Shown here: positions 5,296 through 59,699 of the stretch, piece after piece
How positions within the stretch are numbered: the first letter of the stretch is position 1
Layout of the letters: every line of letters starts with the position of its first letter
NCBI RefSeq assembly: GCF_042688385.1
Contig: NZ_JBHUPY010000007.1
Coordinates: forward strand, 322,110-386,109
Direction: 5' to 3'
Length of the DNA: 64,000 bases
From: Herpetosiphon sp. NSE202
Lineage (GTDB): Bacteria; Chloroflexota; Chloroflexia; Chloroflexales; Herpetosiphonaceae
The notes under the pieces: model-generated
Seen by the model: only the letters and a program-made list of their open reading frames with translations
The model's database searches: none
What the model was told of the DNA's origin: nothing
Program-made: the position numbers and the translations under genes

Positions 5296-5465
5296 GCCAA
5301 AACCTCCAGCGCAAGAGGTTGCAGCAAGCTCACCAATTGCGAACTGCGATCAGCGAGTCAAGCGCAAAGTGCCTGATACTATTGGGCTATAGTATAACGC
5401 AGCTAGTTGAGGATAGCACTAGTACTACGCCGTTATCCGTACTAAAGAACTAGTGCACAGAGCTG

Positions 5466-5506
5466 AGGCCAGCAAAAAGCCCGGACTCGTGTGAGTCCAG
5501 GCTTTG
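5466..5506 (-). terminator. putative intrinsic terminator downstream of the zinc-ribbon gene
   Basis: Inverted repeat cccggactc-gtgt-gagtccagg. On the minus strand the hairpin is followed by CTTTTTGCTG. Confidence 0.4.
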
Positions 5507-5539
5507 CTTATAAGAGTGAGGATTGATTCCCCAGGGTTC

Positions 5540-5950
5540 TTACCAGCGGTTCGAGCGTGATGATGATTGTTGGCTTTGGAAGCAATCGCGGCAGTAAACT
5601 GGCTTGTCGCCACGTGGTACGAATGGCACTTGTGCAGGGCCGCCACATGATGAACAGGTGGTGGTGTGCATTTCGCGTTGACCGCGATCTGAGCTGAAGC
5701 CACCACGATCTGAGCTGTAACCACCACGGTCTGAGCCATAGCTGCTGCGGCTGTAGCCACCACCGCCGCCACGGCTTGAGCTTTCGTAGCCACCGCCACC
5801 GCGATTTTGTTTGCGGGCTTGGCGGCAGTTTGAACAGCGAGTTGGCTCGTTGTCAAAGCCCTTTTGAGCGTAAAATTCTTGTTCGCCAGCGGTAAATACG
5901 AACTCGTTGCCACAATCGCGGCAGTTCAACGTCTTGTCGGTAAAGCTCAT
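5540..5950 (-). CDS. double zinc-ribbon (CxxC...CxxC) protein with a central Gly/Arg/Ser-rich RGG-like low-complexity linker
   Basis: 136 aa. N-terminal CRDCGNEFVFTAGEQEFYAQKGF...CSNCRQ and C-terminal CSSCGG...CRDCFQ, separated by (GGGGY/SSDRGG)n repeats. GGAGAAACAAGCTA precedes the ATG. The overlapping 5425-5913 ORF in the other frame is Ala-rich and judged spurious. Confidence 0.7.
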   Translation of the reverse strand: MSFTDKTLNCRDCGNEFVFTAGEQEFYAQKGFDNEPTRCSNCRQARKQNRGGGGYESSSRGGGGGYSRSSYGSDRGGYSSDRGGFSSDRGQREMHTTTCSSCGGPAQVPFVPRGDKPVYCRDCFQSQQSSSRSNRW

Positions 5951-6233: not shown

Positions 6234-7370
6234 TTAGCTGCCGAAGATTTTGCTCCAGAAGCCACGCTCTTTTTGCTCGAAATGATCCATGCCCATGGTC
6301 TCGCCAAGTTTCTGGAACAGTTCGCGCTGGTCTTCGTTGAGTTTGGTTGGCACGCGCACTTTAACCACGACCATTTGATCACCACGGCGGCCTAAGTTGC
6401 GTCCCGATGAATCGATGTAGGGCACGCCTTTGCCGCGCAAGGTAAAGACTGTCCCATCTTGAGTGCCCGCTGGCACATTCAACGGCTCGTCGCCATCAAC
6501 GGTTGGCACGTTTAATTGTGCACCCAAGGCTGCTTGCACAATGTTAATTGGCAGTTGCAACAGAATATTGTTCTCTTCACGCACAAAGAAATCGTGTGGC
6601 TGCACCCGTAAATTAACATAGAGATCGCCAGCAGAGCCACCACTTGGCCCGCTATCGCCAGCACCACCAATTCGAATCCGCATGCCATCATCAACCCCAG
6701 CTGGTACGGTCAATTTGCGCTTGACGGTTTCACGAACGCGGCCTTCGCCGCGACAGGTTTTACATGGAATCGGAATAATCACGCCGCGCCCAGAACATTG
6801 ATCACAGGTGGTGACGGTGACCATATTCAGGAACGTGCGCACCCGCATCTCACCTGAGCCTTGGCATTTAGGACAGCGGGTTGGCTCGGTGCCAGGTTCA
6901 GCGCCGGTGCCGCCACAAGGCCCACACGATTCAAGCCGCCGGTAATCAAGCTCTTTTTCGGTGCCAAAAATTGCTTCTTCAAAGCTAATCACCAAATCGG
7001 CGCGTAAATCGGCTCCTTGGCGCGCGCCACCACGGTTGCCGCCGCGTGCACCTTGGCCAAAGAAGGCATCGAAGATGGTGCTAAATGGATCACCGCCAGC
7101 GCCACCAAAGCCCGAAAATGGGTCGAAGCCTTGGCCGCTACTGCCAGCGTGACCAAATTGATCGTACATGCGGCGCTTTTGATCGCTCGAAAGCACCTCG
7201 TAGGCTTCGGTTGCCTCTTTGAATTTGTTTTCGGCTTCTGCATTGCCGGGGTTGCGGTCGGGGTGATATTGCATGGCCAACTTGCGGTAGGCCTTTTTGA
7301 TCTCGTCAGGTGAGGCACTTTTGCCCACACCTAGTACTTCGTAGTAGTCGCGTTTTGCCTCAGTTGCCAT
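6234..7370 (-). CDS. dnaJ: molecular chaperone DnaJ
   Basis: J-domain (YYEVLGV...HPDRNP), G/F-rich region, four CxxCxGxG zinc-finger repeats and a C-terminal domain; 378 aa. Confidence 0.95.
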
Positions 7371-7615
7371 ACATATCCCTTATGTAGAAGGATGAAGGAT
7401 GAGGGATGAATTATGAACATCCCCAGCATCCACACCTTAGTTAATCTTGTAGAAGGATGAGGGATGAATTATGAACATCCCCAAACCTTTATACCTTAGG
7501 TTTGTAATGTAAGTTCTGCGCTTGATGTCTAAATTACATATTCAATAATAAAGAATGAAATAACCTTTCTAAATTCATAATTCGTCTATTTCATCCTTCA
7601 TAATTCATAATTCCG
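7371..7615 (-). promoter_or_regulatory. structured AT-rich dnaK-dnaJ intercistronic region with tandem and inverted repeats
   Basis: 245 nt at about 35% GC. Two tandem 35-42 nt repeats (gtagaagga[tgaagga]tgagggatgaattatgaacatcccca at 7384-7425 and 7449-7483), each holding a gggatg-N9-catccc hairpin. Complementary gaattatgaa / ttcataattc motifs lie near the dnaK stop (7588-7614). Confidence 0.4.
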
Positions 7616-9472
7616 TTAGAGTTCTACTTCGTCGGCGTTGCCTTGTTCTTGGCTGGAGGTTTCTGGCTCGATGCCAAAATCGGGTGCTGGCTTGAGCCGT
7701 TGCATTGCCACGCTCAATTCAGCAGTGCGATTGTTGATCGCTTCCATATCGTCGCCATCAAGCACCGCGCGCAGGGCCGCAATCCGATCTTCGACGGTGT
7801 TTCGAGCTGAGTAATCCACATTCTCATCTGCTTCGCGCAACATGCGATCGGCGGCGTAGATTACGCCATCGGCTTTGTTGCGAGTTGCAATTTGATCGCG
7901 ACGAAGGGCATCACTATCGGCGTGATCTTCAGCATCGCGAATCATCGAGGCAATTTCATCATCGTTTAGGCCCGATGATGGCGTGATGGTGATTTTTTGC
8001 TCTTTATTCGTCGCTTTATCGGTCGCGCTGACATTAACAATCCCATTGGCATCAATATCAAAAATAACTTCAATTTGCGGCACGCCACGCGGCGCGGCAG
8101 GAATGCCATCGAGGGTAAAGCGCGCCAACGATTTATTGTGACGGGCTTCAGCGCGTTCACCTTGCAACACATGAATTTCGACGCTATTTTGATTATCGCT
8201 CGCAGTTGAGAAAATTTGCGAGCGCTTGGTCGGAATCGTGGTGTTGCGATCAATCAGCGGAGTCATTACGCCGCCATAGGTTTCGATGCCCAAGGTTAAT
8301 GGCGTTACGTCAAGCAACAGCACATCGGTTACATCGCCCGAAAGCACGCCCGCCTGAATTGCCGCGCCAATCGCCACCACTTCATCGGGATTCACGCCTT
8401 TGTGTGGGTCTTTGCCAAAGAATTTTTTGACGGCTGCTTGCACAGCTGGCATGCGGGTTTGACCACCAACCAAAATCACTTCATCAACTTCGCTGGCCTT
8501 CAAACCAGCATCTTGCAAAGCGAGCTTGATTGGTTTGAGCGTGCGTTCGACCAAATCGGCGGTCAATTGCTCAAGTTTGGCGCGGGTTAAAGTCGTGTTC
8601 AAGTGTTTGGGGCCGCTAGCATCGGCGCTGATAAATGGAAGCGAAATATCGGTTTGCAGCACGCTCGAAAGTTCTTGCTTGGCCTTTTCGGCAGCTTCTT
8701 TCAAGCGTTGCAAGGCCATGCGGTCGCTGCGCAAATCGATATTATTTTCGCGTTGAAACTCACTTGCCAGCCAGTCGATAATCTTTTGATCGAAATCATC
8801 GCCGCCGAGGTGGGTATCGCCGTTGGTTGCGCGAACCTCGAATACCCCATCGCCAAGCTCCAAAATTGAAACGTCGAAGGTGCCGCCACCAAGGTCATAG
8901 ACGACAATTAATTCGTTGGTGTTGCGATCCAAGCCATAGGCCAAGGCGCTGGCGGTTGGCTCGTTGATGATGCGCAATACTTCGAGGCCAGCAATTTTGC
9001 CAGCATCTTTGGTCGCTTGACGCTGCGAATCATCAAAATAGGCCGGAACCGTAATCACAGCTTGGGTGACAGGCTCGCCCAAATAGGCTTCGGCATCGGC
9101 TTTGAGTTTTTGCAAAATCATGGCCGAAACTTCTTGGGGCGAATAATCGCGACCGCCCATCAAAACTCGCGCATCGCCATTGGGCGCGCTGGTCATGCGA
9201 TAGGGAATCAAATCTTTATCACGTTGAACGCTAGGATGATCTAATTTACGGCCAATAAAGCGCTTGACTGAGTAAATTGTATTTTCGGGATTGGTGACCG
9301 ATTGGCGCTTGGCCACTAAGCCAACCGTGCGTTCACCGTTTTTGCTCAAGGCGACAATTGAAGGCGTGGTGCGTGCGCCTTCAGCGTTGGGAATCACCAC
9401 CGCCTCGCCACCTTCCATGACCGCAACCACTGAATTGGTTGTTCCAAGGTCAATACCGATCACTTTACCCAT
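7616..9472 (-). CDS. dnaK: molecular chaperone DnaK (Hsp70)
   Basis: [18 protein letters not shown]...[10 protein letters not shown]...C-terminal EEVD-like end. The ORF-track start at 9505 is an upstream extension; the conserved N-terminus begins at ATG 9470-9472, preceded by GGAGCAATAGCAAT. Confidence 0.95.
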
Positions 9473-9497
9473 ATTGCTATTGCTCCACAGACAGCGA

Positions 9498-9556
9498 CAA
9501 AGCATCGTTAAGCGACAGCCACGAACGGCAGCGATGCCACTTATAACGATGCTTTG
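9498..9556 (-). promoter_or_regulatory. stable hairpin in the grpE-dnaK intergenic region, immediately 5' of the dnaK RBS
   Basis: caaagcatcgttaa (9498-9511) pairs with ttataacgatgctttg (9541-9556), giving a 13-bp stem around a roughly 30-nt loop. Confidence 0.4.
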
Positions 9557-9567
9557 CCTAGGTGCTC

Positions 9568-10083
9568 CTACTTGCCGACTTTGACGACCGTTGGACGCAA
9601 GACCCGTTCGCCGAGCTTGTAGCCGCGGCGCAATTCGGCCACGACTTTGTTTGATTGGGCTTCGTCGCCTTCTTCAAACATAATTGCTTCGTGAACATTG
9701 GGGTCGAATTCTTCATCAACGGCGGGAATTGGTTGCAGGCCAGCGCCCTCAAGCACCGTTTCAAATTTACGTTGTACTTGTTTAACGCCGCCAATCCACT
9801 GATTGTTTTCAATTTCAGCGGGAATTTGGCCCATCGCCAAGAGCAGGTCGTCGAGCACTGGAAGCAATTTCAACATCAAACCAGCGCTAGCATTGCGAAT
9901 CAACTCCTCGCGTTCGCTTTCGGTGCGGCGTTTGTAATTTTTGAAATCGGCAATTGCGCGCATCCAGTTGGTTTTATGTTCTTCAACTTCGCGTTCGAGC
10001 GTGGCGATCCGTTCGTTCAGGCTTTCTGCATCGCCTTCAGGATTGGTATCGTCAGTTGATTGTGCTTGCACTTCTTCCGTCAT
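9568..10083 (-). CDS. grpE: nucleotide exchange factor GrpE
   Basis: 171 aa with an N-terminal acidic coiled coil and a conserved GrpE C-terminal region (...[15 protein letters not shown]...VLRPTVVKV...). Confidence 0.9.
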
Positions 10084-10141: not shown

Positions 10142-11206
10142 CTATTCTGTTGGTTCTATTTTGCGTTCGCCGTATAAATCGCCCATCAGATCGCTCATAA
10201 CCCCAGCGATATAACGCACGCTAGAGATTGAGCGTGGATAGGCCATGCGGCGCGGCCCTAAAACTCCGACGACTCCGGCAACATCGCCATTAACTCCGTA
10301 GCGCGAAAGAATCACGCTATAATCGCGCAACTCATCGCGGCTATGCTCGCCGCCGATAATCACTTGCACGCCATCGGAGGCCAAAGCTTGGGGAATGAGC
10401 GATTCGAGCATCGTGCCGCCTTCGAGAATCGAAAGCACCTCGCGTACCCGCGTCACCTGGCCAAACTCTGGTTGATGCAGCATTTCAAGCAAGCCATCGT
10501 GATGAATTAATTCGTTGACATGCTCCTCGAATTGTTGCATTGCCCGCGCCACGCTCTCGATCACCAGCATTTCAAAACTGCTGAGCGGTGGCTGGGCCAC
10601 AGGCTGCGTCAACGCAAGCGCCGCAATCGCCTTGGCCGAAGCTTCATGACAAAGCTCGTTAATCCGGCCAGCGATTCTGCTAAGTTGCTCTTGGGTGGTG
10701 TTGGGGTCGGCGGGCAGCGTTTGTTGCTTAACCGAGCCTTCGTGCAACACCAACACCATCAACACCAAGGCATCGTTGATCGCAATCAATTCAATATGTT
10801 TAAAGCGACTTTCATAGGCGCGCGGTGGGGTAACCACGGCTGCGGTTTGGGCAGTTCGGGCCAAAACCGCTGCTGCCAAATGAATCCATTGGTTCAATTC
10901 CGAGCGGATTTGATAGAACTGATGTTGGATCATGCGCTGTTCTTGGGTGGAAAGCGCCGCCCGATCCATCAAATTTTCGACAAAGAAGCGATAGCCAGCA
11001 TCGGTGGGCAAGCGCCCTGCAGACGTATGCAAATGGGTCAAAAGGCCAGCATCTTCTAAGGCCGCCATTTCGTTGCGGACAGTTGCTGAGCTAACCCCTA
11101 AACTCCGCGCAAGATCTTGCGAGGCGACTGGTGTTGCCGTATCGATATATTGTTGGATCACTGCCTTAAGCACCCGTCGTCGCCGCTCATTGAGTTCTAG
11201 ATTCAT
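10142..11206 (-). CDS. hrcA: heat-inducible transcription repressor HrcA
   Basis: 354 aa. N-terminal winged helix ([70 protein letters not shown]) typical of HrcA. It is the first gene of the hrcA-grpE-dnaK-dnaJ operon. Confidence 0.9.
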
Positions 11207-11219
11207 CGCTCACCTCGCT

Positions 11220-11246
11220 TTAGCACTCTTGGCCGCCGAGTGCTAA
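11220..11246 (-). promoter_or_regulatory. CIRCE operator (HrcA binding site) upstream of hrcA
   Basis: Perfect match to the consensus: TTAGCACTC-ttggccgcc-GAGTGCTAA (N9 spacer), 14 nt upstream of the hrcA start. A -10-like TATAAC (complement of 11255-11260) lies just upstream on the transcribed strand. Confidence 0.85.
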
Positions 11247-14686: not shown

Positions 14687-14728
14687 CCCTCACCCCCAGC
14701 CCCTCTCCCACTCAACGCGGGCGAGGGG
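14687..14728. repeat. half-copy (single arm) of the G-rich palindromic MITE/REP-like element family
   Basis: ccctcacccccagcccctctcccactcaacgcgggcgagggg is the reverse complement of the right arm found in the five full copies. Confidence 0.6.
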
Positions 14729-14770
14729 AGCACTGGTCTCGTGGTTAACCTGGTATATCATACGAATAAC

Positions 14771-28784: not shown

Positions 28785-28949
28785 TCATGAGTGGCTATAG
28801 GCTATGGGCTTTGGGAACCGCGAAGCACACGAAGGTTTCCTTTTTTAGCCACGAATTGCCCGAAGCATAGATTGTAGTCACAGATTTTTTGCCTTCTGCC
28901 TTTTGCCTTTTGCCTTCATCCCCGATCCCCAACCCCCGATCCCCAACCC

Positions 28950-31613
28950 TCAACGCGGATACAGATAGCGAATCGTCTCAATATTGATTTCCATTGGAGC
29001 CATGCGCCACTCAGTTTGCCATTCTTGCTCCCGCCATGTCAACTGGGTAAAGGCCGGATTCCAAGGTTGGCCAGTTATGAGCGTTTTTCCATCGTTATCT
29101 AAGGCTAATAATCGATGCTCAGTCGGCTCAATCTGCGAACGCAAAGCTAGGCTTGGTTGCTGCGTATTATAGATGCTCAGGCGACGTTTAAGCCCAACAT
29201 AACCAAAATTCACCGCTAGCCACTTACCATCAGGCGACCATAAAAACTGGTCTTGGCTATGAGCATAAAAGCCTGCATCAAGCTGATACCAGCGTTGCTG
29301 CGCAAATTCATACAAGCCAACATAGTGATCATGCTTGGGGTTCAAGCTTGGTAGAATTAACCCAAAACGCTCACCATCGGGCGCAAAGCTCAAGCCCACC
29401 AGATCGATCAATGGCAGCGTCAATTCATGGCTTTGTTGCGCGACCAAATCGAGCACCTTCACCAACATGGTTTGCTTATTCGCCGTTGCCAGGGGATAGA
29501 GCAACCAGCGTTGGTTGGGAGAAACAATGATCCTGGCATAGATTGGGGCACTTGTAACTGCTGGATCATTGGCAACAACGCTGGGAATTTCGGCCAGTTT
29601 TGTGGCTTGAAACGGTGGGCCTAATTGCACCCGCCAAAGCACCTGCGGGTTCGGCCCAGCTTGGAGAAAATAAGCGCTATCGCCGTGCCATGCAATTGGT
29701 TTAGCCCATTGCAACTCAGGCCATGTCCTTGAATCAGCGAGAATATTCCATGCGCCGGTTTGCACATTAATCTGAACTAACTGACTGGAGCCAGTAAATT
29801 GATCACTGCGCTGTAAATCTTGGCCCACAATCACCAGCAAGCTGCGATAATCGGGTGCCAGCAAGGGGTCAAAATCCAACTCACCAGTACTAACAATTTT
29901 TTCAAATTGCCATTCCACAGTTCGTTGGGTGCTTAGGTCGAGCATTTGCCACTGGCGTGATTGGGGGCGTTGTAGCACTAAGGGCAACTGATTGTAACGC
30001 GGAAACGTGCGCACCACAAAATCGGCAAGTAACTCCGTGTGCAAGTCGCTATCGATCCGCTGAATGCCACCGTTAGCAGCAATCAAGGCCACGGGCTTGG
30101 TCGTAGCAGGCACGATCGTTGGCAAAGCTGTCTGTTCATAGATCGAAACAGGGCTAGGCAAGGGCGTAACCGCTGCTTGAAATTCACTTGCAAGCGGTTC
30201 AATTGGCACACCGCTAACCTCGCCAAGCCACAGAATGCCATTATCGCCAATGATCGTTGGCTCAACCACTTGGGTCAACGTATTGGTTGCCATATTCCAA
30301 AGGCTAAGATCGCGTTTGGAACTCACATAATCAGGCGTGATTACTAACCATTGATCGGCACTATTGGTTGGATAGAGGCTGCTAAACATATCATGCTTGA
30401 TCGTGGCAATCAATCGGCCAGTTTGCAGATCATAGGCTAAATAGTCATCATTTGCGCTGAACGAACTGGTAGGCGGAGCCGCACTATCAATAACTAAGAT
30501 CGTTTGATCGTTGGATAAAAAGCCTGCTCTGGGCATCCACTCAAATGGGCTTGCGTCTAATTCAACTGAACGCTCATCGCCAGTTGCCCAATTGATCAGG
30601 CTCAATGTTGTTGGGCTACGAAATACGCCCAATAACGGTTGGCTGCCATCGCCCAAAATTGTAGCATTGGAGAGTGAACCAAATTCTTGGTAGGCTTGGG
30701 TTGCAGGGTCATAGTGAAATAGGGTTTCCGGTGTGGAAAACCAAATATGGCCAGTGCTAGTGCGCAACAGTTGATCAACTGCTGGCAATTTAAAATTTTG
30801 GGCTGGTTGCAGCAAAATTCCATCATTCAACCCAAGGTGACTTAAACGCCAGGTCATCGTTGCTTGATTAATTTCAATCAGATAGACCCCAGTGCCAGCC
30901 TGATCAAGCGTCAAGTGACTTGTATAATCAAGCGCCGTTTTGGGCAACAAACCATAGCGCCATAGTTCGCGACCAGTCGCCAAATCAAGCGCAACCAATT
31001 GCTGATTGCGCGGAATCAAGACACGTTGTTGCGCAGGCAACAAGGCCATAAAGCGGTCGGCATAGGCATCAACGGCAGCAATCGAAACCAAATTATTGGA
31101 GTCGATTCGCACGAGGTTATGGCCCGCAGGATTATGCACAATCGCATAGCGCTGACTTTGGCTGGCTGGCGTTGAGCGCGCAGTTGGCGCTGGCAACGGC
31201 GTAACGGTTGCGGCTGGTAGATTGGTTGGTGCTGGCTCAATCACTGGCACAATCGTAGGTAAGCGAGTCGGATCACCGGGCAAATTAGGAGGAACGGTTG
31301 TCAGCGCAAGTTCTGGTTGCACCGTCACCAAACGAATCTCGCCCAGTTTATCGGGCACGAGCCGAATTGATGGTGGCTCTGTAGGGCGGGTAGGAAACGG
31401 CGCAGCAATCAAGGTCGGGCTAGGTTGAATACTTGGCGTTGGCGAGCCAAGCAAGGCCACAGCGCTTGGTTCAATTGGTGGCGCATCAGGCTCATTGGGC
31501 ATCAATGTCAGCGCCAGCATCAAACCAATTAAGCCCAGCGCCCCCACCACTGGCAACACCCGCCACCAATTGCGATCCTTGCCAAGTTTGACTCGCTCTC
31601 GTTGTGGTTGCAT
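28950..31613 (-). CDS. paralog B3: signal-anchored two-domain beta-propeller-repeat protein
   Basis: 887 aa. N-terminus MQPQRERVKLGKDRNWWRVLPVVGALGLIGLMLALT is nearly identical to B2. FLWSPDGKWLAV and SFAPDGERF motifs; C-terminal ...RYLYPR. The 5' flank is duplicated with that of B2. Confidence 0.75.
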   Translation of the reverse strand: MQPQRERVKLGKDRNWWRVLPVVGALGLIGLMLALTLMPNEPDAPPIEPSAVALLGSPTPSIQPSPTLIAAPFPTRPTEPPSIRLVPDKLGEIRLVTVQPELALTTVPPNLPGDPTRLPTIVPVIEPAPTNLPAATVTPLPAPTARSTPASQSQRYAIVHNPAGHNLVRIDSNNLVSIAAVDAYADRFMALLPAQQRVLIPRNQQLVALDLATGRELWRYGLLPKTALDYTSHLTLDQAGTGVYLIEINQATMTWRLSHLGLNDGILLQPAQNFKLPAVDQLLRTSTGHIWFSTPETLFHYDPATQAYQEFGSLSNATILGDGSQPLLGVFRSPTTLSLINWATGDERSVELDASPFEWMPRAGFLSNDQTILVIDSAAPPTSSFSANDDYLAYDLQTGRLIATIKHDMFSSLYPTNSADQWLVITPDYVSSKRDLSLWNMATNTLTQVVEPTIIGDNGILWLGEVSGVPIEPLASEFQAAVTPLPSPVSIYEQTALPTIVPATTKPVALIAANGGIQRIDSDLHTELLADFVVRTFPRYNQLPLVLQRPQSRQWQMLDLSTQRTVEWQFEKIVSTGELDFDPLLAPDYRSLLVIVGQDLQRSDQFTGSSQLVQINVQTGAWNILADSRTWPELQWAKPIAWHGDSAYFLQAGPNPQVLWRVQLGPPFQATKLAEIPSVVANDPAVTSAPIYARIIVSPNQRWLLYPLATANKQTMLVKVLDLVAQQSHELTLPLIDLVGLSFAPDGERFGLILPSLNPKHDHYVGLYEFAQQRWYQLDAGFYAHSQDQFLWSPDGKWLAVNFGYVGLKRRLSIYNTQQPSLALRSQIEPTEHRLLALDNDGKTLITGQPWNPAFTQLTWREQEWQTEWRMAPMEINIETIRYLYPR

Positions 31614-31685
31614 CGAAATTCTTCCTCTCTATTCAATCATGAGTGGCGATGGGCTATGGGCTTTTGGCGTTAACCATAGCCTGAT

Positions 31686-31788
31686 CCCCTCACCCCCTAG
31701 CCCCCTCGCCCGCCCACGGGCGAGGGGGAACCACGCGGCACTTACTCCCCTCGCCCGCGTTCAGTGGGAGAGGGGCTGGGGGTGAGGG
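31686..31788. repeat. full copy (B) of the nested-palindromic G-rich MITE/REP-like element
   Basis: Left arm cccctcaccccctagccccctcgcccgcccacgggcgaggggg, spacer, then right arm cccctcgcccgcgttcagtgggagaggggctgggggtgaggg. The arms are mutual reverse complements. Confidence 0.7.
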
Positions 31789-31878
31789 CATGCTACTTAT
31801 TCCCAATCTAATGAACCCACATATAGCCGATAGCTCATAGCCCGATCCCCGATCCCCGATCCCCAGCCTCCATTCGCC

Positions 31879-35409: not shown

Positions 35410-36972
35410 TTAGCCTAATGCTTCGAGCAAGAGCGCTGCTTCGTCGGCGCTAATCTTGCCACTTTGCACCATCTTCAAAATCGCCAAGCGTTCTTGGGTT
35501 TTATCAACTGCTGGAGCTTCGGCTGCTGGAGTTTCAGCTGCTTGGGCAACAGGTGCGGCCTGCGCTGCAGCTGCTGCTTGCTCTGGCGTAATCCGCACGG
35601 TATCGCCGGTGTAGGCCACGTGTTGGCTTGATGATGATCCATCATCTTCACTAATCGAGACGCGATGTGGCGCATTTGGCGCTGCTGGTGGCGCTGGCGC
35701 ATTTGGCGCTGCTGGTGGCGCTGGCGGGCGTGGCGCATTTGGCCGAGCAACATTTTTCTCGATATTGCCCAAGGCTTGGCCAATCGCCTCGTAAGCGCGG
35801 CTAATGCCTTCATCAGCAGCTCGTTTGGCTTGCTCTTTCAAGCGCTCGATTCGCTCAGGGTCGAAACGATATTCGCGTTCGTTGATCCGCACGCTGACAC
35901 GTTCGGCGGCTTTGGCAGCCCGTTCAGCAGCGCGTTCGGTGGCTTGGCGGGCGCGTTCAGCAGCCTTTTCGCCCTTGCCACCATGCCAATCGCGGCTGAG
36001 TTCGCTGAATTGGGCGGCAATATCACGGCCCATCGAGGCTAGGTCATCGGTGAAATCGCGAATTGCGCGGTTGAAATCATCGCTCTTCCAATTCCAGTTG
36101 CCGCCCCAATTGCCGCTGCCCACGCTCTTCGATTGGCCTGCTGCCGCAGCGCCACGAATGCTCAAATCGCCTTGTACATTGACTTCGAGCCGAGCCGAGC
36201 CATTGCCCCAGGTCAGGCTAATGCCACCAGGCTCACGGTCGGCCATGCCGGAAACATCGCCTTGCACAAAGCCGTTGACGGTCAAATTGGCATCGTCGGT
36301 AACTTCCAAAATCAGATCGCCACTCGCATTGGCGTGATAGACGTGCTCAGGGAACCAATTGACACCTAATTTCAAATCGCCATCAACGTGAATTGGCGCA
36401 AGGCTCTTGATTAGGCCACGCAAGGTTGCATCGCCACTCACCCGAGTAACTGCCACATCACCAGTAATATCGCTAGCGCTCAAATCGCCATGAATATTGC
36501 TAATCGTCAGGTTATGCACTTGGCCGATTTTTGCATCGCCATTGACATTTTTGACTACCACAGTATCAGCGTTCTCATAGATTTTGAGATCGCCATCAAT
36601 GTTGGCGATGGTAATGTTGGCGCTTTTGGTTAATACCGCATCGCCCTGCACCGAAGCACCTTCGAAGGTTTGCACATCGCGAATATTAAGATCGCCTTCA
36701 ATTTGGCGGGTGTGAACTGCCGCAATCCCACTAATATCCAGGTCGCCTTGCACTACTTCTAGGGTCAAGGTTGTGCCATGGGGCAAGCGCAATTCCAAAT
36801 CATCGGAGCAGCGCTCGATCGAAAGATGGCCTTCTTGGGCGCGAAAACTAATCTCATCTTCAGCAACATCAAACCAGGCTTCGGCGAGATCGTGGGCAAT
36901 AACCCGTAAGTTTCCTTCACAAATGCGAACCGCCACGGTTGGATTCGTACCAATATTAATACGTTGTTGCAT
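35410..36972 (-). CDS. DUF4097-like (toast-rack / putative adhesin beta-strand repeat) protein with a Pro/Ala-rich linker and a C-terminal SHOCT/DUF1707-like peptide module
   Basis: 520 aa. Many GDLxI / GDAxL beta-strand repeats (VVQGDLDISG, ANIDGDLKIY, NVNGDAKIG...), then a coiled ERAAERAAKAAER segment, a PAPPAAPNAPAPPAAPNAP linker, and a C-terminal QERLAILKMVQSGKISADEAALLLEALG. Confidence 0.7.
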   Translation of the reverse strand: MQQRINIGTNPTVAVRICEGNLRVIAHDLAEAWFDVAEDEISFRAQEGHLSIERCSDDLELRLPHGTTLTLEVVQGDLDISGIAAVHTRQIEGDLNIRDVQTFEGASVQGDAVLTKSANITIANIDGDLKIYENADTVVVKNVNGDAKIGQVHNLTISNIHGDLSASDITGDVAVTRVSGDATLRGLIKSLAPIHVDGDLKLGVNWFPEHVYHANASGDLILEVTDDANLTVNGFVQGDVSGMADREPGGISLTWGNGSARLEVNVQGDLSIRGAAAAGQSKSVGSGNWGGNWNWKSDDFNRAIRDFTDDLASMGRDIAAQFSELSRDWHGGKGEKAAERARQATERAAERAAKAAERVSVRINEREYRFDPERIERLKEQAKRAADEGISRAYEAIGQALGNIEKNVARPNAPRPPAPPAAPNAPAPPAAPNAPHRVSISEDDGSSSSQHVAYTGDTVRITPEQAAAAAQAAPVAQAAETPAAEAPAVDKTQERLAILKMVQSGKISADEAALLLEALG

Positions 36973-37840: not shown

Positions 37841-38022
37841 CCCCTCACCCCAACCCCTCTCCCGCCCAGCAGGCGAGGGGCTTTAACCGCGTGGTTCTCT
37901 CCCAATTCCTTGGTGCATCACGGATGCTCTCCCTCGCCCGCATTCAGTGGATGACGAAACTTCAACTATTTCGCTCCCCCTCGCCCGCGTTCAGTGGGAG
38001 AGGGGGCTGGGGGGTGAGGGAA
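37841..38022. repeat. full copy (C) of the MITE/REP-like element, with an internal partial duplication of the right arm
   Basis: cccctcaccccaacccctctcccgcccagcaggcgagggg ... ccctcgcccgcattcagtgg ... cccctcgcccgcgttcagtgggagagggggctggggggtgaggg. Confidence 0.7.
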
Positions 38023-40907: not shown

Positions 40908-41075
40908 TTCCCTCACCCCAACCCCTCTCCCGCCCAGCGGGAGAGGGGCTTTTCATATGTTCTTGCACAATTCCAAGGGTCAGCTCCCCTCGCCCGCGCC
41001 GTGGGAGATTGGTAAACAAGGGTCGGCTCCCCCTCGCCCGCGTCCAGTGGGAGAGGGGGTTGGGGGGTGAGGGAA
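40908..41075. repeat. full copy (D) of the MITE/REP-like element, exactly filling the gap between the convergent dinG and PBP genes
   Basis: ttccctcaccccaacccctctcccgcccagcgggagagggg ... cccctcgcccgcgccgtgggag ... ccccctcgcccgcgtccagtgggagagggggttggggggtgagggaa. Confidence 0.7.
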
Positions 41076-41076
41076 C

Positions 41077-43935
41077 TTATTTCACGCTCAATACACTGAC
41101 GCTGCTGGTTACACGGTTGCCAGCTTGATCGATTGCTGTGGCGACAACGCGATAGGTTCCAGCTTGGGTTGGGCTAAAATCAAGGCTATAGGGCGCTTGA
41201 TCGCGCATAAACACCTCGCCATTGACCGTCCACTCAACCTTGGCAAGCTGGCGATCATCTTGGGCGTTGGCTTGAAACTGCACTGATTGGCCGCGCAAGG
41301 CCGTAGCTGGCACCGTGATGCTAATTGTTGGTGCAGTTCGATCAAGATAGATCGTGACTCGTTGCTCGTTCATGCCATTGCTTTGCTCAACCAACAAACG
41401 CAAACTATACTCGCCTTCGGGCAAGCCATCAGCATTCCAAATTGCCAACAAGCCATTGGAAATCCCGCCAAAGCCTTCGATAATCGTCGTCCAGCTGCTA
41501 GGATTCGCGCCAGTGCCCCAAGCAACCGTATAATCGCCAGCAGCGCTGCCGCGAATGCGAATTGGCGCGGCTAAGGCTGCACCATCTGTTGGCTCGATCA
41601 AGGCAATTGGAACATTGGCGTTGCCTGCATTGGTTGGATTCACCAAAGCACAAGGCTTGGTTGGCGGAGTTCCCAAGCCGCCAGTTTCGCCCCAATTGCC
41701 CGCCTCATCGGGATAGATTGCAAACACCCGATCTTCGCCTGGCTGGTCGGGCAAGGCCACACAATCGCCACTTGGGCCAACCCGAATCGTGCGATAGACA
41801 TTTTCGGTTTCGACTGGCTCAGTGCCATTAACAAAATATTCGCTGCGAATGTTGGGGCAGGCTTTCGATGGTTTGGTGCCAGTTGGAATACAAACTTCGT
41901 GCTCGGCAACATTCGCTGGTGGCGTAAATTGCTCGATTGGCAAGCCTTCGTGGAACTTGGTCATCAGGCGATTCCAAATCACGGCAGCACCAAATGAGCC
42001 AGGCACTGCATCCATTGGGCTATTATCGCTATTACCAACCCACGCGCCAATCACCACGCTCGGCGTATAGCCAACCGTCCAGCTATCACGGTCGTCGTCG
42101 GTCGTGCCGGTTTTGACCGCCGCAGGCCGATCGTTGGGCAATTCCATGGCATTGTCAGGCCCAAACATCCACTCGCGGGCTTGGTTATCGCTCAACATAC
42201 TTGAAACAATAAACGCCAAACCATTGCCATCTGGCCCCAAGGCTGGTTGGCTTGGTGGTTCGCTCCAAGCTTCGAGCACTTCGCCCCGCGTATTGACCAC
42301 CTTCAAAATCGTTGAGGCAGGTCGATAATTGCCCTCGTTGGCAAACACGCTGTAGGCAGTGGTCAATTCCATTAGGGTTACTTCGCCGCCGCCAAGCGCC
42401 AACGATAAACCATAGCGGGGGCGATCATCGAGGGTGCTGATGCCAACCCGCTGCATCAAACGCAAAAACTCATCAATACCCACATGATCGAGGGTTTTGA
42501 CCGCTGGCACGTTGAATGAATTGGCTAAGGCAACCCGAATCGAAACTGGCCCATGGAAATTACGATCATAATTTTTGGGCGCATAGACTTCGCCGCCAGC
42601 AAAGCGATATTCGGTGGGCACATCCCAAAGCACGCTGGCCGCCGTCCAATCGCGCATCATCGCCGCCGCATAGACAAACGGTTTGAGTGCCGAACCTGGT
42701 TGACGTTCGGCCAAAGCCACATTCACTTGGCCATCAATCGCCGCATTGTTGTAATCAGCCGAGCCGACCATCGCCAAGACTTGGTTGGTTTTGCGATCAA
42801 GCATCACTACCGCGCCGTTGGTTGCGTTTTGGGCAGTAATTTCGCTGACCCGTTGCTGCACCTCTTGCTGAGCGGTTGCCTGCCATTGCGGATCAAGCGT
42901 CGTGGTCACTCGCAAGCCGCCACGATAGAGCAATTCGGGGCCATAGCGCGCTTCAAGCAATTGGCGCACATAAAACACAAAGTGCGGTGCAGTTAAATTC
43001 ACTTGCGACGGCTTGACATACAATACTTCAGCAAAGGCTTGTTCAGCTTGCTGCTTGGTAATCATATTGTTGCGCACCATTGCTGCCAAGACGATCTCTT
43101 GGCGTTGTTTGGCGGCATCGGCATTAACCAAGGGATCAAGTTGCGATGGCGATTGAGGCAAGCCAGCCAACATCGCTGCTTGGGCCAAGCTTAAATCGCT
43201 CACGCTAACCCCAAAATAGGCTTGGGCAGCGGCCTCAGCGCCATAGGCATTATTGCCATAGGGAATTTCGTTCAAATACAAGGCCAAAATTTGATCTTTG
43301 GAATAGCGTTGGCTAATTTGATAGGCCAAAATTGCCTCGCGAATTTTGCGCTTGGGCGTTTGCTGGCCGCGTTCTTCTGGCGAAAGCAACACATTGCGCA
43401 CCAATTGCTGGGTAATCGTCGAAGCACCGCCTTGGCCAGTTTCTTGGTCGGTCAAATTGGCCAGCGCTGCACGGGCAATCGAAGGCAAATTAACCCCAGG
43501 ATTGGTATAGAAATTACTATCTTCGACCGCAATTGTGGCCTGTTTAAGATACTCGGAGAAGGCGCTGAACGGCACGACCGTGCGTTGGCCAGCGTTAGGA
43601 TCGAAAATCTCATACAGCAAGGTTGTGCCATCGCGGGCATAGAGTTTGGTGGTTTCAAAGGCGCGATGCGTGCCCAAATTATCAATCGAGGGCAAATTGC
43701 GGCTAAAATACCAATAGCCACCCAAGCCAGCTGCAAGGATGCAAAATACCCCAATCAGCAGCAGTTGCACCAAAAGAATCAGTGCTTTGAGCCACCATGG
43801 GCGCGCTTGACGGCGAGCAGCCCGCGCCGAACGCCGTTCCTGCCGAGTAGTTAATTGTGGTTGATCGCTGTTTGATTGTGCCATAGTCGTTTGGGGAATG
43901 GTCGCTGGGGAATGGGGGCTGGTTAAAATCAGCAT
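41077..43935 (-). CDS. class A penicillin-binding protein (glycosyltransferase GT51 plus transpeptidase) with a C-terminal Ig-like extension
   Basis: N-terminal TM; GT51 motifs (EDSNFYTNPGVN, GASTITQQLVRN); transpeptidase SxxK-like region and KTGTT. An alternative start is MAQSNSD at 43884. Confidence 0.85.
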   Translation of the reverse strand: MLILTSPHSPATIPQTTMAQSNSDQPQLTTRQERRSARAARRQARPWWLKALILLVQLLLIGVFCILAAGLGGYWYFSRNLPSIDNLGTHRAFETTKLYARDGTTLLYEIFDPNAGQRTVVPFSAFSEYLKQATIAVEDSNFYTNPGVNLPSIARAALANLTDQETGQGGASTITQQLVRNVLLSPEERGQQTPKRKIREAILAYQISQRYSKDQILALYLNEIPYGNNAYGAEAAAQAYFGVSVSDLSLAQAAMLAGLPQSPSQLDPLVNADAAKQRQEIVLAAMVRNNMITKQQAEQAFAEVLYVKPSQVNLTAPHFVFYVRQLLEARYGPELLYRGGLRVTTTLDPQWQATAQQEVQQRVSEITAQNATNGAVVMLDRKTNQVLAMVGSADYNNAAIDGQVNVALAERQPGSALKPFVYAAAMMRDWTAASVLWDVPTEYRFAGGEVYAPKNYDRNFHGPVSIRVALANSFNVPAVKTLDHVGIDEFLRLMQRVGISTLDDRPRYGLSLALGGGEVTLMELTTAYSVFANEGNYRPASTILKVVNTRGEVLEAWSEPPSQPALGPDGNGLAFIVSSMLSDNQAREWMFGPDNAMELPNDRPAAVKTGTTDDDRDSWTVGYTPSVVIGAWVGNSDNSPMDAVPGSFGAAVIWNRLMTKFHEGLPIEQFTPPANVAEHEVCIPTGTKPSKACPNIRSEYFVNGTEPVETENVYRTIRVGPSGDCVALPDQPGEDRVFAIYPDEAGNWGETGGLGTPPTKPCALVNPTNAGNANVPIALIEPTDGAALAAPIRIRGSAAGDYTVAWGTGANPSSWTTIIEGFGGISNGLLAIWNADGLPEGEYSLRLLVEQSNGMNEQRVTIYLDRTAPTISITVPATALRGQSVQFQANAQDDRQLAKVEWTVNGEVFMRDQAPYSLDFSPTQAGTYRVVATAIDQAGNRVTSSVSVLSVK

Positions 43936-44045
43936 ATTCCCGATCCCTGACCCCTAATCCCTGACCCCCACAAATAAATTTTGCGATAAAATTATAGCAT
44001 GCAGCCTACACCATTTTCGGTGATTATGCAGAAAGGATGTTTTGC

Positions 44046-58076: not shown

Positions 58077-59213
58077 ATGTTGGAGGTAGGTGTGGCTGCT
58101 AAAATTGCCTTTATTCGCAAGGGTCGCTGGCCGCTGGCCAATGTGCGAACTGCCGAAACCTTACGTACTCAATTTCCCGAATATGAACTGCGTGAGATCG
58201 ATTTAATTCCTATCATTCGTCGCAAGCCTGCACTGGTTGCATTAAACGGCTGGTGGACGTTACGTCAATACGCTGGCGATTTGGCCTTGCGTCGGCGCGG
58301 CCCCAAAGATGCCTTTTTAATTACCAGTTATATTTTTAAAGCTGTCAAGCATTTGGTTGCCGATTTGCTGCGCGATGATGAGTATGTATTCAGTTTTCAG
58401 ATGCAATCATTATTTGATGCCAGCGTGCCAAATATCCCTCATTTTGTCTATACCGACCATACCTTGTTGGCAAATCGCCAATATCCGGGCTTTAATCCAG
58501 CCTCACTCTATCACCCAGACTGGATGAAATTAGAGCCAACAATTTATCAAAATGCCAAGATAGTCTTTACACGTTCGAATCATGTTTCGCGTTCGTTGAT
58601 CGAGGATTATCATTGCGAGCCGGAGAAAGTGCGCTGTGTTTATGCTGGCAGCAATGCACCAGTCATCAGCGAAGCGCCAGATCCTGCGCGCTATGCTAGC
58701 CAAAATATCGTCTATGTTGGGATAGATTGGGAGCGCAAAGGTGGCCCCGAATTGCTGCAAGCCTTCGCCCAAGTGCGGGCGGTTTATCCCAATGCAACCC
58801 TGACAATCATCGGCGCAACCCCGCAAACCAACCAACCTGGCGTTGAGGTCATTGGGCGAATTCCGGTGGAGCAATTGCCGCAGTATTACCAACGAGCTGC
58901 CGTTTTTTGCATGCCCACCAAACTTGAGCCATTTGGGATCGTGACGATTGAAGCGATGAATTATTGGCTGCCGGTAGTTTCGACCAACCTTGGAGCCATG
59001 CCCGACTTTATTGAGCACGATCGCAATGGCTATTTGGTCGAGCCAGGCACCGTTGATCAACTAGCAACCGCCTTGATCAAGTTGGTCGGCGATCCTGAAC
59101 GCTGTCGGCGTTTTGGCGCGCGCAGTGTCGAAATTGCGGCCCGCTATCGCTGGGAAGCGGTCGGTTCGGCCATGCGCGAGGCGATTATCCAGAACATAGA
59201 GCATAGAGCATAG
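58077..59213 (+). CDS. glycosyltransferase, GT4 family
   Basis: The C-terminal ...CMPTKLEPFGIVTIEAMNYWLPVVSTNLG region matches the GT4 ExFG..E motif context. Confidence 0.7.
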   Translation: MLEVGVAAKIAFIRKGRWPLANVRTAETLRTQFPEYELREIDLIPIIRRKPALVALNGWWTLRQYAGDLALRRRGPKDAFLITSYIFKAVKHLVADLLRDDEYVFSFQMQSLFDASVPNIPHFVYTDHTLLANRQYPGFNPASLYHPDWMKLEPTIYQNAKIVFTRSNHVSRSLIEDYHCEPEKVRCVYAGSNAPVISEAPDPARYASQNIVYVGIDWERKGGPELLQAFAQVRAVYPNATLTIIGATPQTNQPGVEVIGRIPVEQLPQYYQRAAVFCMPTKLEPFGIVTIEAMNYWLPVVSTNLGAMPDFIEHDRNGYLVEPGTVDQLATALIKLVGDPERCRRFGARSVEIAARYRWEAVGSAMREAIIQNIEHRA

Positions 59214-59228
59214 AACATAGAACATAAA

Positions 59229-59699
59229 CCGCGAAGGACACGAAGAGCACGAAGGGCGAGGGGTCAGGAATTTGCTTTTAACGCAGAGGCGCAGAGAGTA
59301 AGGATTGGGAGCTGGGGATCAGGGGTCGGGACGCTTGGCTATCGGCTTTTGGCTGAAGGCTATGGGATTAGGAGCCGGGGGTCAGGGGTCGCTTACAAGG
59401 GTAGGTTGTTAAGATCCCCTCACCCCAACCCCTCTCCCGTGGCGCGGGCGAGGGGCTTTAACGTGCTGGTTCTCCCACAATTCCTTGGCGAAACATGGTC
59501 GGCTCCCCCTCGCCCGCGTTCAGTGGGAGAGGGGGTTGGGGGTGAGGGAACGCTCCACTGCCGACCAATCGCTCAAAACCTACCCTTGTAAGGTCAGGGG
59601 TCGGGGATCGGGACGCTTGGCTTTGGGCGAACGGAAGCATAATCCCCATAATCTGTGGCGAAAAAAACTCATCCTTCGCGATCTTCGCGTCCTTCGCGG
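59229..59699. repeat. roughly 470-bp multi-layer palindromic repeat region containing MITE copy F (59416-59550)
   Basis: Outer inverted repeat ccgcgaaggacacgaagagcacgaagg (59229-59255) versus ccttcgcgatcttcgcgtccttcgcgg (59673-59699). Inner perfect 16-bp inverted repeat cttacaagggtaggtt (59392-59407) versus aacctacccttgtaag (59577-59592). Direct repeats gggacgcttggct and G-rich (ggggtc/ggggatc) tracts. Core element copy F carries its own two arms. Confidence 0.6.

Follow-up and report, generated by a model that had tools for sequence, protein, structure and literature searches.

A heptanucleotide-repeat spacer between dnaK and dnaJ in Herpetosiphon sp. NSE202 and its relation to intergenic repeats of other bacteria

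Why would a bacterium place a long, AT-rich and repeat-laden stretch of non-coding DNA between dnaK and dnaJ, two genes of one operon? The question is raised by a 245-nt spacer (7371-7615, minus strand) in Herpetosiphon sp. NSE202, a member of the Chloroflexota, within the 64,000-nt stretch of contig NZ_JBHUPY010000007.1 that we analyzed and call the window. A first-pass annotation of the same DNA had seen in this spacer a candidate RNA element that might set the dnaJ:dnaK ratio, sense temperature, serve as a processing site or be a small inserted element. Its description of a long, structured spacer built from repeats has stood: the GC content is 33%, hairpins are present, and the repeats exceed chance. 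We found that the spacer is a lineage-specific composite of tandem arrays of GGATGAA/GGATGAG/TTATGAA-family heptanucleotides. Such arrays belong to a genome-wide, cross-phylum class of intergenic 7-nt repeats whose purine arm lies against stop codons and whose pyrimidine arm lies against starts. On balance, and with somewhat better than even confidence, we read the spacer as a generic intercistronic hairpin module of a heptamer-repeat class like the short tandemly repeated repetitive (STRR) sequences, one that probably tunes the relative output of dnaK and dnaJ.

Anatomy of the spacer

No other stretch of the operon is as AT-rich as the spacer, whose GC content is 0.33 compared with 0.51 for the whole window and ~0.50-0.60 for the flanking dnaK and dnaJ sequence. 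All of the motifs that had been listed for it are present on the minus strand, including the dnaJ Shine-Dalgarno (SD) sequence AAGGGA. Three copies of GAATTATGAA lie at the 5' end (7574-7583, 7597-7606 and 7604-7613) and its complement occurs twice at the 3' end; all five exact copies in the 64 kb fall inside the spacer. The minus strand of the spacer also carries AAGGATGAAATAG, two GGGATG-N9-CATCCC hairpins and CCCTCATCCTTC tracts. The two tandem units that had been described as ~40-nt repeats are indeed repeats, but the real units are two exact 32-nt copies (7394-7425 and 7452-7483) within a ~58-nt tandem duplication whose remaining half has diverged, and the period underlying them is 7 nt. 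This 7-nt period is the organizing principle of the spacer: arrays occupy its two ends, inverted relative to each other, and arms of 12-27 nt that are mutually complementary connect these ends. Tandem Repeats Finder (TRF) reports GAAGGAT x3.4 at 7387-7410 and AATTCAT x5.7 at 7572-7613, both with period 7. The 19-mer at the hairpin core, for which shuffled sequences give an expectation of 0 matches, is confined within the window to the spacer.

Read in the direction of transcription, the spacer opens with a purine-rich heptamer array (7567-7613, minus strand; 5.7 copies by TRF, also found by the period-7 scan) that begins 2 nt past the dnaK stop codon and runs GAATTAT GAATTAT GAAGGAT GAAATAG ... 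GAATTAT GAATTTA. An AT-rich central segment follows (7484-7566, minus strand), which we call type A from alignments of spacer alleles. Within it lies a 27-nt block, GCAGAACTTACATTACAAACCTAAGGT (7493-7519, minus strand), that is fully conserved between the window and the metagenomic allele L103. The block is paralogous to the dnaJ leader (CTACA..AAGG..), and there is an overlap between it and a weak promoter-like TTTAGA-N16-TACATT. The first of the two 3' units, an exact 32-nt copy identified by repeat search (7452-7483, minus strand), consists of a hairpin, GGGGATG-TTCATAATT-CATCCC, that appears in both the minimum free energy (MFE) and centroid structures, followed by the pyrimidine heptamer array TCATCCC TCATCCT TC. 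The second (7387-7425, minus strand; repeat search, TRF and 21-mer scan) has the same hairpin and a longer, G-free pyrimidine array, TTCATAA TTCATCC CTCATCC TTCATCC TTC, which holds the 21-mer TTCATAATTCATCCCTCATCC and ends ~5 nt ahead of the dnaJ SD. Each ~58-nt 3' unit joins a leader-like segment (CUACA..AAGG..) to a small hairpin and a G-free pyrimidine array. The dnaJ leader itself (7370-7386, minus strand) can form a weak 6-bp AU hairpin, UACAUA-AGGGA-UAUGUA, with the SD (7376-7381) placed in its loop. This leader is kept in all Herpetosiphon spacers, including that of L001, whose spacer is otherwise non-homologous.

Several other readings of these strings were tried and set aside. Coding potential is one: the open reading frames (ORFs) in the spacer span just 10-17 codons and are built from heptamer sequence. 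A pseudo-SD followed by AUG (AAGGUGUGGAUG) in the second 3' unit (7394-7440, minus strand), with equivalents at the same positions in L009 and L010, opens a short upstream ORF (uORF) that runs through the heptamers and would overlap the dnaJ start out of frame. This uORF is probably not a conserved coding feature, because H. giganteus has it in another frame with another stop and H. geysericola has lost it; nor is it conserved in H. llansteffanensis. Purine arrays might serve as three-frame stop signals, since a GGATGAA array has a TGA in every frame; arrays of AAAGTCA and GGGGTCA lack this, and the idea fails as a general rule. Binding sites of the CsrA type (GGA, with AAGGAUG resembling CsrB repeats) were dropped because other heptamer families at the equivalent position lack GGA.

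Heptamer arrays in the window, in relatives and in other phyla

Is the dnaK-dnaJ spacer unusual in carrying heptamer arrays? In a period scan of the window, arrays of period 7 dominate the short-period repeats (8, compared with 0-1 for each of periods 6, 8 and 9), and the same holds at related loci (103 compared with 2-9). Of the 20 period-7 arrays that the window contains, 18 are non-coding, spread over 10 of the 28 intergenic regions of at least 60 nt. The heptamers differ by locus: GGCTATG, TGCCTTC, ATCCCCG/CCCGATC, AGAACAT and GGGGTCA all occur. Beyond the spacer, TRF and the period scan place intergenic arrays at 28785-28954, 31641-31864, 43933-43962, 59191-59226, 59335-59612, 38002-38020 and 41055-41073. 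One region, 31614-31878, has a layout like that of the dnaK-dnaJ spacer, with outer inverted heptamer arrays enclosing inner hairpins (z = -4.3), and a near-identical GGGGGYTGGGGGGTGAGGG is found at two loci of the window.

The related locus L004 carries heptamer arrays in all three spacers of its hrcA-grpE-dnaK-dnaJ operon, with units of the AAATCA-, CGATAG- and CCTATCG-types in the hrcA-grpE and grpE-dnaK spacers (1304-1436 and 1959-2044). Among the arrays of these two spacers is a clean (AGAACAT)n/(ATGTTCT)n hairpin (z = -6.6) whose heptamer is shared with window positions 59191-59226. Of the 27 inverted array pairs counted over all loci, 26 place the purine-rich arm 5' and the pyrimidine-rich one 3', an arrangement that reads alike on either strand. 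Arrays of the GGATGAA type are not restricted to dnaK-dnaJ, as L036, L074 and L076 show.

The 21-mer TTCATAATTCATCCCTCATCC from the pyrimidine array extends the class well beyond Herpetosiphon. It has >120 exact matches in Joint Genome Institute (JGI) metagenome contigs (this and the following counts are among the matches listed), on contigs of GC 0.44-0.67 from soils, lakes and sediments. The matches represent 106 distinct contexts with the consensus tTTCATCC-TTCATAATTCATCCCTCATCC-TTcatcctt, and 104 of these are intergenic according to heuristic gene calls. Complementary purine words lie upstream, no more than 150 nt away, in 38 of 120 cases and downstream in 0. By the same gene calls, in a tally slightly biased to short distances, 29 of 42 motifs end no more than 20 nt from a co-directional start (11.5 expected) and, read on the opposite strand, 22 of 46 lie within 20 nt of a stop (10.5 expected). 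The carriers are diverse. In a member of the Chthoniobacterales (Verrucomicrobiota), the element stands ahead of rpoA as a purine array, a loop, a pyrimidine array and the ATG. Further carriers are a second metagenome-assembled genome (MAG) of Verrucomicrobiota, a member of the Thermodesulfovibrionales (Nitrospirota), and a contig whose closest named relative is labelled Dongiaceae (a 478-aa protein in the 90% cluster of the contig's 480-aa protein). A Herpetosiphon MAG has the 21-mer at three loci besides dnaK-dnaJ. No Rfam match was found for fourteen of the metagenome loci.

Two further observations came from these searches. Eleven loci (L014, L018, L028, L035, L039, L043, L050, L065, L069, L083 and L130) share a ~127-nt inverted-repeat element, CATCTAACGAGAA.AAGATGAGCGACGGC...GCCGTTCGCTCCATCG..TGGTTAGATG, with a TTCATCC-TTCATAA-TTCATCC-CTCATCC array in its apical loop. 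The contigs are Verrucomicrobiota-like, L083 being a Verrucomicrobiota MAG. In an RNAalifold consensus of 8 copies, 6 of the 26 pairs show compensatory changes, and there is no Rfam match; the element may be a structured RNA or, alternatively, a small mobile element. Separately, a 40-nt array consensus searched against plasmids and phages gave nothing beyond marginal, uninformative matches, two phages among them (E 0.04-0.6). The plasmid matches, to NZ_CP020372.1 of Ca. Thiodictyon syntrophicum in 4 places and NZ_CP128401.1 of Ca. Chlorohelix allophototropha in 2, are weak (82-84% identity, E 0.04-0.5) and offer hints of related arrays in purple sulfur bacteria and another lineage of Chloroflexota.

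Where do these repeats stand among known ones? Mazel and colleagues reportedly described STRR heptanucleotides in heterocystous cyanobacteria in 1990, and we know of no function assigned to them in more than 30 years. Like the STRR sequences, the Herpetosiphon arrays are tandem heptanucleotides dispersed in the non-coding DNA of a filamentous bacterium. The sequences and the phylum differ, and polarity and hairpin pairing are not known to be part of the STRR description.

One close parallel in the literature is the set of intergenic heptamers known from Xanthomonas (GGGAATC) and from Nostoc PCC 7120 (GGGGA(C/T)T) (Rehm et al. 2015, PMC4692102). About 90% of those arrays are intergenic, with the G/purine-rich strand 0-50 bp after stops and its complement 0-50 bp before starts; they often form inverted pairs capable of stem-loops, and they occur at the same genes in sister species with varying length and sequence (PMC4692102). 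The spacer shares with them the period of 7, the intergenic location, the placement rule, the inverted pairing and the variability between species. It differs in its GGATGAA/TTATGAA units without G-tracts, in its host phylum, in the nesting of its arrays with a duplicated leader unit, and in a heptamer string common to several phyla. The G-quadruplex and i-motif formation studied by Rehm et al. is not applicable here because the spacer heptamer has no G-tracts. Read against the pattern of the G-quadruplex class (at least 4 tracts of at least 3 G at 7-nt spacing), the GAAGGAT and GAATTAT units have no G3 tracts, and the GAGGGAT and GGGGATG units of the spacer are isolated; elsewhere in the window, CCCGATC x3.4 at 31841-31864 would qualify.

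A second parallel is the TAACTGA tandem repeat of marine Beggiatoaceae, Cyanobacteria and Bacteroidetes, which is intergenic and concentrates immediately upstream of starts, often where the closest relatives have shorter, repeat-free spacers, and for which a translational role was proposed, not shown (MacGregor 2015, PMC4679880). Here too a single heptamer family forms start-proximal intergenic arrays in distant bacteria. The heptamer is a different one, however, and TAACTGA repeats are mostly direct, with one indirect set, whereas inverted pairs are typical of the spacer class.

All four features tested for the heptanucleotide-repeat class are present in our material, namely a 7-nt tandem period, many intergenic arrays, stop/start polarity and variability between relatives, and we therefore file the spacer with the intergenic heptanucleotide repeats. 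Our literature search found no paper on heptanucleotide repeats in Herpetosiphon or on the GGATGAA/TTCATCC family, and a "mobile promoter" paper that names Herpetosiphon concerns another element. Going beyond the literature found are the GGATGAA family itself, an identical 21-mer in at least three phyla among the matches listed, and the strict purine-5'/pyrimidine-3' polarity of the pairs. To these we add two features of the junction that are taken up below, cassette-like replacement from stop to SD and a spacer that changes more slowly than synonymous sites.

Turnover and constraint at the dnaK-dnaJ junction

How stable is this arrangement among relatives? Homologues of the DnaJ protein assign the window to the Chloroflexota, family Herpetosiphonaceae. 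By nucleotide identity of the flanks, H. giganteus is closest to the window (95-96%), followed by H. llansteffanensis and H. geysericola. Among GTDB species genomes, the hairpin 19-mer occurs solely in the dnaK-dnaJ spacers of these three species, and L103 provides a fifth allele. The alleles vary in the number of GAAGGAT units at the 5' end (1-4), in having a single 3' unit or two, and in which of two alternative centres they carry. The H. giganteus spacer has a length of 266 nt and four GAAGGAT units, that of L103 a length of 194 nt and one 3' unit; the centre of H. geysericola and H. llansteffanensis, type B, is unrelated to the type A of the window. The 3' unit or units and the leader are almost invariant in alignments of the five genomes. 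In BLAST comparisons, collinearity with H. geysericola and H. llansteffanensis (91-95% identity, other intergenic regions included) breaks solely at the spacer centre. The H. giganteus alignment continues through the spacer and breaks at the hrcA-grpE spacer instead.

More drastic changes appear at other loci. The flanks of L001 are 95% identical to those of L103, yet its spacer is a non-homologous (AAAGTCA)n...(TGACCTT)n hairpin that reaches from stop to SD, so that the whole cassette appears to have been replaced between sequences ~5% divergent. Herpetosiphonaceae at greater distance have inverted heptamer arrays of other types at dnaK-dnaJ, GGATTAG in L004 and GGGGTCA in L006. The spacer of L005 holds a perfect 20-bp palindrome, and the spacers of L002 and L003 are just 11-12 nt long. 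Counted together, some hairpin sits at the dnaK-dnaJ junction in 7 of 9 lineages.

Against this turnover stands the similarity of the window and L103. Their spacers are 85% identical, compared with 68-69% at the third codon positions of dnaK and dnaJ, and the last ~55 nt of the spacer and 26 nt reaching into the central block are 100% identical. These comparisons support the view that the spacer evolves more slowly than synonymous sites and suggest that it is under constraint within the lineage.

Relatives had been named beforehand as the material for a test of the regulatory proposal, and the unrelated spacer of L001 and the short spacers of L002 and L003 speak against it; a sequence-specific riboregulator is therefore not supported. 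Nor does the proposal of a dedicated, conserved riboregulator fit with motifs that are not specific to dnaJ and with heptamer arrays in many intergenic regions and other phyla.

The window also contains a dispersed G/C-rich repeat, CCCTCACCCCCAGCCCCTCTCCCAC...GCGGGCGAGGGGAGC, at 14687-14736 and 31680-31790, with hairpins formed by it in two or more intergenic regions. In H. giganteus, an insertion of ~100 nt related to this repeat interrupts the hrcA-grpE spacer (L009, 3932-4043); the corresponding spacer of the window is 58 nt.

Predicted folding and competing explanations

The spacer as a whole is predicted to fold with an MFE of -61.6 kcal/mol. Of 200 dinucleotide shuffles, 3 fold as well (z = -2.3), and comparison with mononucleotide shuffles gives z = -4.0. 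The MFE structure includes a long-range stem between the spacer ends. In the consensus fold of four species, the 5' purine array pairs with the last 3' pyrimidine array, and the outer stem therefore brackets the entire spacer. All five of the spacers >60 nt that we folded have a long hairpin immediately after the stop (z -2.3 to -6.8).

We propose that the arrays, carried on the polycistronic hrcA-grpE-dnaK-dnaJ mRNA, would form nested stem-loops that fill the distance from the dnaK stop to the dnaJ SD. Such a module could protect the dnaK segment from 3' decay and could reduce read-through into dnaJ or coupling to it, which would leave DnaK in excess over DnaJ. The spacer is located such that the dnaK:dnaJ ratio could be affected. 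The outer stem may hold the stop codon and the SD physically close, and the insertion of the spacer sequence within an operon would be tolerated for that reason. The number of heptamer units would set the strength of the effect and could change between species through slippage or replacement. This model has precedents of two kinds. Repetitive extragenic palindromic (REP) sequences and bacterial interspersed mosaic elements (BIMEs), as in malE-malF, form stem-loops within operons that protect upstream mRNA, so that adjacent cistrons differ in expression. REPs are imperfect palindromes of 20-40 nt, present in hundreds of near-identical copies and linked to REP-associated tyrosine transposases (RAYTs). 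The likeness to our spacer lies in the proposed model only, that is, in intra-operon stem-loops that give differential expression; the spacer arms are degenerate tandem heptamers and its specific hairpin is found at a single locus. The other precedent is the dnaK operon of Bacillus, which has the same hrcA-grpE-dnaK-dnaJ order and in which segmental decay or processing, with unequal segment stability, sets protein ratios (Homuth et al. 1999, in PMC3446304). What that account documents is the loss of the hrcA segment, and no homologous sequence takes part.

Several observations weigh against this reading. The long-range pairing that the first-pass annotation had proposed exists as complementarity and as a stem of the MFE structure, but the ensemble of the window allele gives the outer stem a pairing probability of just 0.05-0.10. 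The value is 0.5-0.7 in sister species with more GAAGGAT units; the window allele has two units fewer, and GAAUUAU replaces GAAGGAU. The MFE structure has a frequency of only 0.0005. RNAalifold found no covariation support in the four close sequences (covariation term +1.25), because the four spacers are too alike. A U-tract terminator was not found either, with 0 terminator-like sites at 7200-7800 on both strands, and the spacer hairpins continue into mixed C/U heptamers, not U-runs. The high conservation of the spacer could stem from concerted evolution with other heptamer copies in the genome. Two relatives, L002 and L003, manage with 11-12 nt, and the hairpin is therefore dispensable for the operon as such. 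Finally, any effect on the dnaK:dnaJ ratio is something that we infer.

Could the arrays simply be neutral or selfish simple-sequence DNA, generated by slippage or a copying process and tolerated between genes with no role at dnaK-dnaJ? Among the rivals this one carries the most weight, although we consider it unlikely. It would account for the missing arrays of L002 and L003, the wholesale replacement in L001, the like arrays found in many intergenic regions with no relation to this one and in all spacers of the L004 operon, the differences in unit number between species and the lack of covariation in the RNAalifold analysis. It does not readily account for a spacer identity that exceeds that of third codon positions (85% against 68-69%), with ~55 nt and 26 nt identical. 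The polarity of 26 of 27 pairs and their placement at stops and starts would be hard to obtain without selection or a directed mechanism, and five non-homologous hairpins occupy the same junction in 7 of 9 lineages. An internal promoter in the AT-rich centre, which would give dnaJ a basal transcription independent of HrcA and leave the repeats incidental, comes next in weight and is improbable. The candidate, TTTAGA-N16-TACATT, was read by eye within the conserved block, is kept between the window and L103, and lies in the most AT-rich part of the operon; Homuth and colleagues are said to have found internal promoters in the B. subtilis dnaK operon in 1997, a precedent for one upstream of dnaJ. 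It matches at 8 of 12 positions, however, which is under the scan threshold, and the sigma-70 promoter scan returned two weak promoter-like sites where 1.3 were expected in shuffles. H. geysericola and H. llansteffanensis have an unrelated centre and L001 has none, and the conservation of the block is explained equally well by its being a duplicated copy of the dnaJ leader.

Still less weight attaches to a dedicated cis-acting RNA of dnaJ, a thermometer or anti-SD switch, in which AUCCCU arrays would sequester the AGGGAU of the SD and the 5' purine arrays would act as anti-anti-SD; we regard it as very improbable. AUCCCU is present in both 3' units and is complementary to AGGGAU, and the 3' units and SD are almost invariant in the five genomes. 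As with the ROSE and fourU thermometers, the spacer lies upstream of a heat-shock gene and has a pyrimidine tract complementary to the SD; it differs from them in having no Rfam match, no predicted melting response and no predicted SD sequestration. In partition-function predictions at 20, 30, 37, 45 and 55 C, the probability that the SD is unpaired moves from 0.48 to 0.56 in the window and is similarly flat, near 0.5, in the four other alleles. Both the MFE and consensus folds place the SD in the loop of its own small hairpin. Rfam at the gathering threshold gave no match in the whole 64 kb, and a search of 7250-7750 with E up to 10 gave just three chance-level matches (E 0.66-4.3) to unrelated families. 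L001 lacks the anti-SD complementarity, L002 and L003 lack the spacer, and this same pyrimidine array stands before unrelated genes in other phyla. We therefore rejected the RNA thermometer that had been suggested, on the flat predicted accessibility and the absence of an Rfam family; as far as the folding models go, the spacer is not a temperature sensor.

The least weight of all belongs to an element resembling a miniature inverted-repeat transposable element (MITE) or a REP, inserted once between dnaK and dnaJ, which we think hardly likely and, as far as the window and the GTDB species genomes show, rejected. Of the options first suggested, the small inserted element came nearest to the truth, but the features of a MITE are lacking. 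Low GC, inverted ends and presence or absence among relatives would suit such an element, and Herpetosiphon has other small dispersed repeats that reach this operon, such as the ~100 nt in the hrcA-grpE spacer of H. giganteus. The hairpin 19-mer, though, is at a single locus in the window and at dnaK-dnaJ only in the three Herpetosiphon species genomes. Comparison with the L002 and L003 spacers reveals no target-site duplication and no defined terminal inverted repeats, the ends being degenerate heptamers that vary in number. It is the heptamer strings alone that recur elsewhere, not the whole element.

If temperature is not sensed in the spacer, where is the operon controlled? By the ORF list and Pfam, the minus-strand operon reads hrcA-grpE-dnaK-dnaJ, with HrcA at 10142-11206, GrpE at 9568-10083, dnaK (Hsp70) at 7616-9505 and dnaJ at 6234-7370, all on the minus strand. 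The dnaK product matches Pfam HSP70 (E 2e-262) and its stop is TAA (7616-7618); dnaJ has J, CXXCXGXG and C-terminal domains and starts at ATG (7368-7370). A CIRCE operator (controlling inverted repeat of chaperone expression), TTAGCACTC-N9-GAGTGCTAA (in full, TTAGCACTCTTGGCCGCCGAGTGCTAA), lies at 11220-11246 on the plus strand, with 0 mismatches where 0.01 occurrences are expected by chance. It is 14 nt 5' of the hrcA start within a 419-nt divergent intergenic region and is the sole copy, with none in the dnaK-dnaJ spacer. HrcA/CIRCE regulons are well established. This perfect operator is most likely the expected HrcA target of the operon and the site of its heat control as a whole, which would make that control transcriptional.

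For the dnaK operon, then, the result is mostly deflationary, with no evidence for a thermosensor and heat control most likely at CIRCE. For the heptamer repeats of bacteria, which go back to 1990 in the literature and have no known function, the locus is a clean natural experiment. One junction offers an allelic series of 1-4 purine units, one or two 3' units, two centres, another heptamer hairpin, a palindrome and no spacer at all. Given the slow evolution of the spacer, the polarity and stop/start placement of the arrays and the shared 21-mer, hypotheses on function (tuning of translation or of mRNA stability) and on origin (slippage, conversion or mobility) become directly testable in cultivable Herpetosiphon.

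We also entertain, as a doubtful and more ambitious idea, that GGATGAA/TTCATCC arrays are jointly a cross-phylum, actively propagated cis-element and not slippage debris. The G-free pyrimidine array next to a start might then be an unstructured leader on which ribosomes land, or a translation enhancer, which the complementary purine array after the preceding stop would mask, with unit number tuning expression. Some copying or conversion mechanism would put hairpin cassettes in place as wholes, and exchange them, exactly between a stop and the next SD, and would keep a 21-35-nt string identical across Chloroflexota, Verrucomicrobiota and Nitrospirota. Were this true, the Herpetosiphon dnaK-dnaJ junction would be the first tractable test bed for a question that is 30 years old, namely what heptamer repeats do in bacteria.

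Tandem repeats of other periods occur in coding sequence of the window. TRF reports a 21-nt repeat (2.7 copies, 88% match) at 5681-5736 within ORF 5425-5913, which encodes 162 aa without a Pfam match two genes downstream of dnaJ. ORF 35410-36972 contains 27-nt tandem repeats (2.2-2.6 copies, up to 100% match, TRF score 118) and a 33-nt repeat, at 35668-35736 and 35900-35964, which presumably encode a repetitive segment of its protein.

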